Source: Escherichia phage BUCT823
Direction: 5' to 3' (one strand)
Sequence record: PQ729991.1
Length of the DNA stretch: 40,637 bases
This document shows positions 22,925 through 24,079 of this stretch, one piece after another (within the stretch, counting starts at the first letter, position 1; each line of letters begins with the position of its first letter). The notes under the pieces are model-generated. The model was given only the letters and a program-made list of their open reading frames with translations, searched no databases and was not told where the DNA came from. The translations under genes and the position numbers were made by a program.

Positions 22925-24079
22925 ATGGCCAAGAAGAAAATAACCGACGAACAGTTGCAGGAAGAATTGAACGCCGGTATGAAGAATGTAGATATCGCCC
23001 GTAAATACGGCATCTCAGACCGCGTAATTCGTATCCGTAAAGCGAAGCTGGCTAAGAAAGGCGTGGGCCACGGGCGCGACGTTAGCCACCTTGTGCCAGA
23101 CGGCTACAAGATTAAAGGAACGTCGTCACTTGTGGACGAGTTCGGCAACACTAAGTTGCAATGGGTTAAGACTGACACCGATGCTGAACGTCAGGTCGAG
23201 TTGATGAAAGCCGTTGTGGACGAGATGAAAAAAGATTTACCTAAGTATAAGCCTGTCACTTTGCTCAAAAATGGCACAGATGACGACTTATTAAATCTCT
23301 ACACAATAACGGACCATCACATTGGAATGCTGGCGTGCCAAGAAGAAGGCGGAGATGATTACGACACCACAATCGCGGAATCTCTCGCAGTTGACTGGTT
23401 CAACAGTGCGGTTTGTATGAGTCCACAGAGTGGTGAATGTATCATTAACTTCTTAGGGGACCAAATGCACTACGACGGCATGAAGGCAATGACCCCTATG
23501 AGCGGTCATATTCTTTCAGCGGATAGTCGCCTGTTTAAAATGATACGCACGGCCATTAAGGTTATCAAGCTGGCTGTCTCGCTGTGCCTGCGAAAACACA
23601 AGAAGGTTAAACTTCTTATCTGTGAAGGTAACCACGACCTTAGTTCTTCTCTGTGGCTCCGGGAGATGTTCTACGAGGTATACACAAATGAGCCCCGCGT
23701 CGAGGTTAACCGGGAGGTGTCGCCGTATTATGCGTACAAGTTCGGGGATTGTATGATTTCAGCACATCACGGGCATTGTTCTAACTTTACTAAGGTAGAG
23801 CAGGCCATAATCGGTAAGTATCGGGAGATGTACGGGCGGTGTAAGTTCACATATGTCCATACGGGCCACCTCCACCACAGGGCGGTTAAAGAGACTAATC
23901 TGCTAATTGTTGAGCAACACCAGACATTAGCGGCTAAAGACGAGTATTCTAGTAAAGGCGGTTATTATTCGGGTAGAAGCGCAAATGTGATTACATACCA
24001 TAAACGTTACGGGGAGGTGTCCCGCATAAGTATACCTGTTGAAATGCTGCGAGATATAAACCCAAAATCAACATACTAA
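22925..24079 (+). CDS. N-terminal HTH domain fused to calcineurin-like metallophosphoesterase domain (384 aa); substrate unknown
   Basis: HTH-like DIARKYGISDRVIRIRKAKL; ordered metallophosphoesterase motifs TDHH, GDQMHYD, GNHD, HHGH, GHLHH; GAGGAAG RBS. Confidence 0.6.
   Translation: MAKKKITDEQLQEELNAGMKNVDIARKYGISDRVIRIRKAKLAKKGVGHGRDVSHLVPDGYKIKGTSSLVDEFGNTKLQWVKTDTDAERQVELMKAVVDEMKKDLPKYKPVTLLKNGTDDDLLNLYTITDHHIGMLACQEEGGDDYDTTIAESLAVDWFNSAVCMSPQSGECIINFLGDQMHYDGMKAMTPMSGHILSADSRLFKMIRTAIKVIKLAVSLCLRKHKKVKLLICEGNHDLSSSLWLREMFYEVYTNEPRVEVNREVSPYYAYKFGDCMISAHHGHCSNFTKVEQAIIGKYREMYGRCKFTYVHTGHLHHRAVKETNLLIVEQHQTLAAKDEYSSKGGYYSGRSANVITYHKRYGEVSRISIPVEMLRDINPKSTY

Follow-up and report, generated by a model that had tools for sequence, protein, structure and literature searches.

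The closest functional precedent for the protein described here is Gp48 of mycobacteriophage A10ZJ24 (cluster A), a stand-alone metallophosphoesterase (MPE) which has phosphodiesterase and DNase activity, is expressed early and degrades host DNA (PMC12287305). Another stand-alone enzyme is the MPE of Pseudomonas putida (PDB 6nvo). It is reported to be a Mn-dependent endonuclease of single-stranded DNA that leaves some 3'-PO4 ends, with extra His residues needed for nuclease activity and not for hydrolysis of bis-p-nitrophenyl phosphate (PMC7826289). The host genome is broken down by phages T1 and TLS, and its nucleotides are used again; the 2024 re-annotation of TLS states that the responsible enzyme is unidentified, and it lists gp66 of this phage only as a 'proof-reading exonuclease' (PMC11447400). 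Here we analyzed a gene of Escherichia phage BUCT823 (record PQ729991.1; the whole stretch of 40,637 nucleotides is called the window below). The gene encodes a protein of the same phage family as TLS gp66, PHROG 704, in which a helix-turn-helix (HTH) domain is followed by an MPE core. In our opinion the protein is best explained, tentatively, as a two-metal phosphodiesterase that is tethered to DNA, acts without a partner and is most probably a DNA nuclease. The phage is a Kagunavirus (Guernseyvirinae) of E. coli, and its nearest relative in the phage collection was vB_EcoS_XY1 (XY1).

The product of the gene carries the five MPE motifs (DxH, GD, GNH[DE], H and GHxH) in canonical order. All of the motifs named in the original prediction, which was made from the sequence without database searches, could be located: TDHH at residues 129-132, GDQMHYD at 178-184, GNHD at 235-238, HHGH at 281-284 and GHLHH at 314-318. 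Conservation was assessed in an alignment of 40 sequences and in a second one of 128 diverse homologues, which share 37-93% identity with the window protein. We observed that D130, H132, N236, H237, H282, G314 and H317 were invariant in both. The smaller alignment additionally held G178, D179 and T190 as invariant, and G178 and D179 were at least 90% conserved in the larger set. The alignment of 128 sequences added H182, D184, H284, H312 and H332 to the invariant positions. Every metal ligand was either invariant or conserved to at least 90% in the two alignments. The gene is under purifying selection (dN/dS = 0.036 in comparison with XY1; 0.028 in comparison with Jerseyvirus wksl3 over codons 98-363), and it is a genuine gene, not a chance reading frame. 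This conservation agrees with an active enzyme, and very probably the protein is an active phosphodiesterase.

We did not find any match of the window protein to Pfam Metallophos or Metallophos_2 at E ≤ 1. At this threshold Pfam returned only weak MHYT and GerE matches and the PADLOC-DB defence models returned no family, while NCBIfam gave only a weak FixJ match. Searches of PDB sequences with the single protein, with an 11-sequence profile and with a 128-sequence profile gave only HTH proteins or noise. Among the 128 homologues, however, Metallophos matched 25 and Metallophos_2 matched six at E < 0.01 (best 1e-4). The profile search recommended with the original prediction was negative for Metallophos in the protein itself and positive for both MPE and HTH families among its relatives. 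Judging by these profiles, the family is a divergent clade barely reached by Pfam models. Since Pfam gave no Metallophos match, the protein is assigned to the MPEs by its motifs, its homologues and the fold of the model. The match to the PHROG 704 profile is full-length (residues 4-375 on profile positions 2-389 of 390).

AlphaFold2 run with 11 homologues gave a mediocre model (pLDDT 68), and the run with the 128 diverse homologues reached pLDDT 85.7 and pTM 0.72. The core of this model, from residue 119 to residue 371, is an alpha/beta sandwich with the beta-sandwich fold of MPEs, and at the level of prediction this settles the fold. The nearest structural neighbours of the model (comparison scores in brackets) were SbcD 7dog_B (15.5) and Mre11 3qg5_C (15.5), followed by MJ0936 (14.6), the PolD DP1 exonuclease (14.5), LpxH (13.3), YfcE (13.2) and Rv0805 (12.7). 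Other Mre11 chains scored 12.7-13.8, the P. putida MPE 9.5 and PP5 / calcineurin about 9. The order of the neighbours did not change when the shallower first model, built with 11 homologues, was used.

The motifs can be compared directly with those of known enzymes. The extended motif I reads TDHHIG in the window protein, TDYHLG in the family consensus and SDWHLG in E. coli SbcD, and GNHD is common to the window protein and SbcD. Motif II of Mre11 has the form GDxxH, as does that of the window protein. Lambda NinI has GDLVDRG and GNHE, where the window protein has GDQMH(YD) and GNHD. The view of the original prediction that the motifs speak against a lambda-type protein phosphatase was borne out. 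The five metal-binding motifs of Mre11/SbcD occur in identical order in our protein, and the nuclease-type variants DxH[LI]G and GNHD, together with the top structural neighbours of the model, point to the same enzymes. The protein differs from Mre11/SbcD in having an N-terminal HTH and a beta-hairpin, and far less sequence follows its core. It can be placed in the MPE superfamily and in PHROG 704 but does not qualify for the Mre11/SbcD family. We propose that it works like an Mre11/SbcD-type nuclease, and we predict that the clade is an HTH-tethered, Rad50-independent variant of known MPE enzymes.

Among these, Gp48 is likewise a phage-encoded stand-alone MPE with five motifs. It differs in lacking the N-terminal HTH and hairpin, in having its first motif Asp at residue 10 and in the phylum of its host; the two proteins were compared at the level of the superfamily. 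The P. putida MPE is likewise a stand-alone binuclear enzyme, one that cuts DNA without a Rad50 partner, and one database record names a PHROG 704 member after it. MJ0936, to which an HHpred note in the record of Kagunavirus Snoke points, and YfcE are minimal cores of about 165-185 amino acids and, unlike the window protein, have no DNA-binding module.

The N-terminal HTH was borne out as well. AlphaFold2 placed its helices at residues 8-16, 21-28 and 32-44, and residues 1-50 have an isoelectric point of 10.2, from which DNA binding is predicted. Weak matches were found to Pfam GerE (E 0.1), NCBIfam FixJ (E 0.004) and, with the family profile, to PDB GerE 1fse (E 0.042). The 128 homologues matched the Pfam families HTH_1 (50/128), HTH_8 (25/128) and GerE (5/128). 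The presence of an HTH is certain and its GerE/LuxR subtype is not; the sequence matches are weak, though they agree with one another. The original prediction had presented the protein as a fusion of an HTH-like domain and an MPE; the architecture is real but not unusual, being standard across PHROG 704.

The best-conserved N-terminal element is, however, not the HTH but the beta-hairpin. Its strands (residues 61-70 and 76-85) are followed by a helix (87-103), and G65, S67, W80 and K82 are invariant in the 128 homologues. Over codons 46-97 the comparison with wksl3 gave pN 0.021 with synonymous sites saturated. Distant members lose or replace the HTH and keep the hairpin and the core; those of Ruegeria phages, CP81 and pCB2047-C, for instance, align from residue 57-79.

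We also assessed how widespread the family is. A profile search of 1.84 billion representative proteins gave 5,533 clusters at E ≤ 1e-3 and 1,422 at E ≤ 1e-30, and the best 150 listed clusters are mostly of about 370-420 amino acids. With tblastn the family was found in 2,009 of 50,697 phage records, among them Guernseyvirinae, Drexlerviridae, Dhillonvirus, Vibrio phages, Rhodobacter Casjensviridae, Campylobacter Fletchervirus and phages of Ruegeria and Sulfitobacter. The homologues T1 ST16 (39.5% identity to the window protein), TLS gp66 (41%) and Bas01 gp50 (45%) have an identical architecture and an HNH gene as neighbour, as in the window. The window sequence itself was already public, with 98% identity in XY1. 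PHROG 704 is an abundant, already annotated and experimentally uncharacterised family of phage proteins. Its database names conflict: winged-HTH protein, calcineurin-like phosphoesterase, Ser/Thr phosphatase, DNA repair exonuclease, DNA polymerase II small subunit, nuclease MPE and hypothetical protein. The PHROG name 'DNA repair exonuclease' is a prediction. In the literature we found no paper that pairs Kagunavirus with a metallophosphoesterase and none that names PHROG 704, and the family is unmentioned in an escape-mutant study and in a phage Tn-seq preprint. A CRISPRi-ART screen of phage PTXU04 was set aside as apparently not relevant, since this phage, with 92 genes and a polyvalent protein of 2,198 amino acids, is presumably no Kagunavirus. 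The Salmonella Jerseyviruses show allelic dimorphism within the genus, as they carry two very different alleles of the gene, with about 93% and about 55% identity to the window protein. For some of the divergent alleles a 'homing endonuclease' is annotated under or beside the match.

The neighbourhoods of the gene vary, yet they concern DNA or nucleotides. In XY1 the gene is followed by genes of a HAD_PNKP 3'-phosphatase (Pfam 8.9e-21; phrog_415) and of a deoxynucleoside monophosphate (dNMP) kinase (phrog_139, 9.5e-45). A 2026 study of 522 Drexlerviridae found 'DNA repair exonuclease' to be persistent (508/522 genomes), and its most frequent followers were polynucleotide kinase and dNMP kinase (PMC13164509). 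The gene ends a replication run (helicase, Dam) in T1, TLS and Bas01, and holin, endolysin and spanin follow; in T1 a terminator is annotated between it and the lysis genes. It adjoins lysis genes also in Dhillonvirus, RcGingersnap, K121 and pCB2047-C. In unrelated phage lineages the gene very often lies within a few genes of a holin or endolysin gene, which may reflect co-regulation or merely a position at the boundary of replication and late genes. Metagenomic contigs carried genes of PhoH, DnaB, primase, ligase, ThyX, beta clamp, MazG and ribonucleotide reductase around it. In Vibrio phage K121 genes of a single-stranded DNA-binding protein and an endonuclease lie just upstream, and in the temperate Sulfitobacter phage pCB2047-C the gene adjoins the integrase module.

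Further, we counted neighbours within 5 kb of the gene at 117 IMG/VR loci, which formed 53 groups at 90% protein identity. No obligate partner was found, as BLAST-clustered neighbour families reached at most 7 of the 53 groups. The large terminase was present in 15 groups (mostly 3-9 genes downstream), NinG/Rap in 8 (5 within two genes), a NinB-like protein, identified by a weak Pfam match, in 7 (4 directly upstream) and a dATP/dGTP diphosphohydrolase-like protein in 5 (4 within two genes). HAD_PNKP was present in 4 groups, each time within two genes downstream, and dNMP kinase in 3 (1 within two genes). NinB-like and NinG/Rap genes flank the MPE gene in many environmental phages, and the terminase follows a few genes downstream. 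The counterpart of this nin niche in lambda is held by NinI, another enzyme of the MPE superfamily (1225-1890 of the lambda context). To our knowledge, the role of NinI in the life cycle of lambda has not been established.

Because of motif I, GNHD, the invariant His of GDxxH, the top structural neighbours, the basic HTH and the neighbourhoods, we infer that the substrate is DNA, and we consider a stand-alone, HTH-tethered DNA nuclease rather likely. By analogy with the superfamily, two divalent metal ions, probably Mn2+, would be held by D130, H132, D179, N236, H282, H315 and H317, and would activate a water molecule for attack on the phosphodiester. H237 of GNHD would stabilise either the leaving group or the transition state, and H182 of GDxxH, which is invariant and specific to the family, may help to position the scissile phosphate, as does the equivalent His of Mre11. 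The basic LuxR/GerE-like HTH would bring the enzyme to DNA, the invariant hairpin (G65, S67, W80, K82) would probably cap or shape the substrate site, and no Rad50/SbcC ATPase would be needed. Cutting of DNA during infection could then lead to breakdown of host or competitor DNA and to nucleotide salvage, where the often-adjacent PNKP 3'-phosphatase and dNMP kinase may channel the products into phage DNA synthesis. The 3'-PO4 ends reported for the P. putida MPE (PMC7826289) would explain a 3'-phosphatase as neighbour. Among possible roles we prefer host-DNA breakdown that feeds nucleotide salvage because the T1/TLS enzyme is unassigned, the family is core in these phages, PNKP and dNMP kinase recur and Gp48 is a precedent. 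This role is possible, and on balance we regard it as doubtful. That PHROG 704, including T1 ST16, TLS gp66 and the Guernseyvirinae protein, is the nuclease, sought for decades, by which virulent siphophages of the T1 type and their relatives break down the host chromosome seems more doubtful still. Classical T1 mutants in 'gene 2.5' are defective in this breakdown.

Several observations weigh against a DNA nuclease of this kind or against its proposed role. The protein has neither the C-terminal capping domain nor the Rad50/SbcC-binding region of Mre11/SbcD, and no Rad50/SbcC gene accompanied the MPE gene in about 130 contexts (the whole XY1 annotation, annotated parts of T1 covering 30-48.8 kb, the whole TLS genome, 12 other annotated or Pfam-labelled contexts and the recurrent neighbour families of the 117 IMG/VR loci). 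Alignment of the 128-sequence profile by hhalign with E. coli SbcD, a weak test as SbcD was a single sequence, covered 17 columns around GNHD with a probability of 2%, and the family profile gave nothing significant with lambda NinI, again a single sequence. Acidic loops are conserved close to the active site (residues 140-147; consensus EETGxDWD), which is atypical of DNA-binding surfaces. The window phage has no PNKP and dNMP kinase neighbours. Wholesale destruction of host DNA would be less expected in the temperate phage pCB2047-C, and we found no documentation of host-DNA degradation by Guernseyvirinae in the literature consulted. The literature also yielded no biochemical or genetic work on any PHROG 704 member. 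Finally, promoter-like sites were no commoner in the region of the gene than in shuffled sequence.

The explanation that ranks a close second also assumes a nuclease, one which processes the phage's own DNA by trimming or opening ends, hairpins and branched replication or recombination intermediates before packaging, like a Rad50-independent Mre11 alongside junction resolvases. We consider it fairly unlikely. It fits the nin-like IMG/VR loci with NinB-like, NinG/Rap and terminase genes, the RusA-like resolvase near the gene in Campylobacter phage CP81, the upstream genes in K121, the occurrence in a temperate phage and the PHROG label 'DNA repair exonuclease'. However, NinG and NinB accompany the gene in a minority of lineages only, recombination exonucleases are already encoded (RecE and Erf in T1/TLS, a DUF2800 protein in XY1), and the PNKP phosphatase, dNMP kinase and dNTP diphosphohydrolase neighbours would be left unexplained. 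The nucleotide-pool enzymes among the neighbours would suit a third explanation, in which the substrate is a small nucleotide and the enzyme destroys an immune signal (CBASS, Pycsar, type III CRISPR) or adjusts nucleotide pools and the HTH serves regulation or localisation and not substrate binding. The HHpred note pointing to MJ0936 agrees with this, as does the location of the Guernseyvirinae gene beside an Imm-like accessory gene with a separate candidate promoter. It is nevertheless hard to explain a conserved DNA-binding domain and hairpin in this way, and the known signal-degrading enzymes of phages have other folds (Acb1 is a 2H phosphoesterase, Apyc1 a metallo-beta-lactamase). Nor was there a PADLOC match, though that library holds defence and not anti-defence proteins, and most counter-defence genes are accessory, while this one is core in the Drexlerviridae (508/522; PMC13164509). 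We regard a small-nucleotide phosphodiesterase as unlikely. The original prediction had left a DNA-targeted nuclease and a phosphodiesterase acting on a nucleotide signal as candidate roles without choosing between them; both remain leading candidates, and our results tilt towards the nuclease without settling the matter.

An end-healing enzyme would be a 2',3'-cyclic phosphodiesterase or 3'-phosphatase that works with the PNKP-type phosphatase next to it on broken ends of RNA or DNA, much as the MPE module of Pnkp does when bacteria repair RNA. Two observations would suit this: HAD_PNKP recurs immediately downstream of the gene, or no more than two genes away, in XY1, many Drexlerviridae and 4 IMG/VR groups, and one lineage has an RNA-ligase-family gene at a distance of about 2 kb. 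The Pnkp module is of the lambda-phosphatase type, however, and its GDxxDRG and GNHE are missing from our protein. Linkage to a ligase was not consistent, PNKP is missing from the window phage, and the HTH suggests double-stranded DNA rather than tRNA ends, which makes end-healing quite improbable. A role primarily in transcription, such as control of late or lysis genes with the MPE domain as a sensor or catalytically secondary, is more improbable again. The LuxR/GerE-like HTH, a weak match to a 'late transcriptional activator' PHROG (E 0.0011) and the adjoining holin and endolysin genes in Drexlerviridae, Dhillonvirus, RcGingersnap, K121, pCB2047-C and several metagenomic contigs speak for it. 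On the other hand, conservation of the HTH (60% nucleotide identity between sister genera) falls far short of that of the catalytic residues, distant members have no HTH or align only from residue 57-79, the T1 terminator separates the lysis genes and no operator-like inverted repeat was found near the island promoter, repeats being present only within the Imm coding region. Least probable of all is a Ser/Thr protein phosphatase of the NinI kind. Some GenBank records read 'putative serine/threonine protein phosphatase', and the gene can occupy a nin-like position upstream of lysis and packaging genes, as does NinI. Motifs II and III differ from those of NinI and the hhalign comparison with it was not significant; confident homology to a characterised phage Ser/Thr phosphatase, which would have contradicted the original prediction, was thus not found in this comparison. 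The annotation was rejected on motifs and fold.

The history of the gene could be followed by comparing the window with related phages. Positions 22000-23214, which include codons 1-97, are 93.9% identical to Snoke, and similarity is then lost until 24614. The first 290 nucleotides of the gene are of Kagunavirus type (87-92% nucleotide identity to Snoke). Part of the region is matched by Salmonella Jerseyviruses. In comparison with Jerseyvirus wksl3, nucleotide identity is 95.4% over codons 98-363 and 60% over codons 1-45. The foreign segment does not end with the MPE gene but reaches into the HNH gene (98% identity to the HNH of wksl3). On these identities, the gene is a chimera of a Kagunavirus-type 5' part and a Jerseyvirus-type catalytic part together with the HNH gene.

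The window HNH protein is 62% identical to those encoded directly downstream of the T1 (ST15) and Bas01 homologues, while the MPE proteins share only 40-45% identity. In TLS a related HNH gene (endY) lies directly upstream of the MPE gene. In XY1 an open reading frame (ORF) of 187 amino acids annotated as 'calcineurin-like' (MN927225 10632-11195) is a junction product, in which the first 61 amino acids of HNH and the C-terminal half of the resident Kagunavirus-type MPE are joined at a common EMFS. It is probably the scar of an HNH-driven insertion. It looks as if a homing endonuclease targets the conserved MPE gene, drags flanking catalytic-domain sequence along and follows this gene across phage families.

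The gene belongs to a small island on the + strand, composed of an Imm-like gene, the MPE gene, the HNH gene and a 76-amino-acid ORF in this order (Table 1). Genes on the - strand flank it, with the tail assembly chaperone genes on one side and the tail tube gene on the other. A ribosome-binding site, AGGAAG, lies 6 nt 5' of the start codon of the MPE gene, and the HNH gene begins 16 nt downstream of it. The mechanical ORF of the Imm-like gene extends over 22557-22886 (109 amino acids). Its start is probably at 22696 because the promoter-like site lies inside the longer ORF, AGGAG precedes this ATG and the versions annotated in XY1 and wksl3 are of 59-63 amino acids. By its position the candidate site may serve as the island promoter, and the Imm-like and MPE genes appear to be transcribed from their own host-type promoter. 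The 76-amino-acid ORF has 91% nucleotide identity to CPT_Snoke_022 and has a conserved counterpart in wksl3 as well as in Snoke. Its matches to longer PHROG families (phrog_2452; phrog_17613 'ATPase') are confined to their C-terminal third. We rejected the idea that it is a remnant of a longer gene, since an intact 76-amino-acid gene is present in phage Snoke. A bidirectional terminator is annotated in Snoke at the place equivalent to that of the terminator in the window.

Table 1. Features of the island around the MPE gene, and HNH genes beside related MPE genes. Positions are those of the window, except for the last three rows, where they refer to the retrieved contexts.
Feature	Position	Strand	Details
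Sigma-70-like promoter candidate	22615..22643	+	ATCACA-17 nt-TATAAT; 10/12 consensus matches
Imm-like superinfection immunity gene	22696..22886	+	probably 63 aa; Pfam Imm_superinfect 3.6e-13; phrog_1039 1.1e-26
HTH-MPE gene	22925..24079	+	384 aa, ATG start; phrog_704 1e-150
HTH domain, basic	22925..23065	+	aa 1-47; AlphaFold2 helices, isoelectric point, weak GerE/FixJ matches
Beta-hairpin and helix, HTH-to-core linker	23105..23233	+	hairpin aa 61-85, helix aa 87-103; model, conservation
Recombination junction, approximate	23215	.	codon 97 of the MPE gene; identity shifts from Snoke to wksl3
MPE catalytic core	23279..24037	+	aa 119-371; motifs I-V
HNH homing endonuclease gene	24095..24595	+	166 aa; Pfam HNH_3 6.1e-16; phrog_99 1.2e-49
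76-aa ORF, last clear island gene	24605..24835	+	phrog_2452 2.4e-36, C-terminal part of profile only
Bidirectional intrinsic terminator, island and convergent tail-tube gene	24977..24996	.	8-bp stem, 6 G-C pairs; both strands
HNH relative, T1 ST15	12029-12511
HNH relative, Bas01	6204-6689
HNH relative, TLS endY	39965-40636

In summary, few uncharacterised enzyme families of tailed phages are as widespread as this one, which is present in more than 2,000 sequenced phages, and it is near-universal in T1-like phages, many of which have been proposed for therapy. The MPE gene of the window appears to show cleanly how, in nature, a foreign catalytic domain is carried from one phage genus to another by a homing endonuclease. 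A phage nuclease in itself would not surprise a specialist, but the abundance of the family, its conflicting annotation and its fit to the question of how T1 degrades host DNA make it a worthwhile target that is easy to test. Should the enzyme destroy a nucleotide signal instead, it would represent a new counter-defence fold. If a Rad50-free, DNA-tethered nuclease is confirmed, it would mean that a simple HTH module can redirect an Mre11-type active site, and it would provide a testable candidate for the host-DNA degradation of T1 and TLS. This would bear on generalised transduction by therapeutic phages, and if the enzyme does degrade host DNA, its loss would give the classical 'high-transduction' phenotype of T1.

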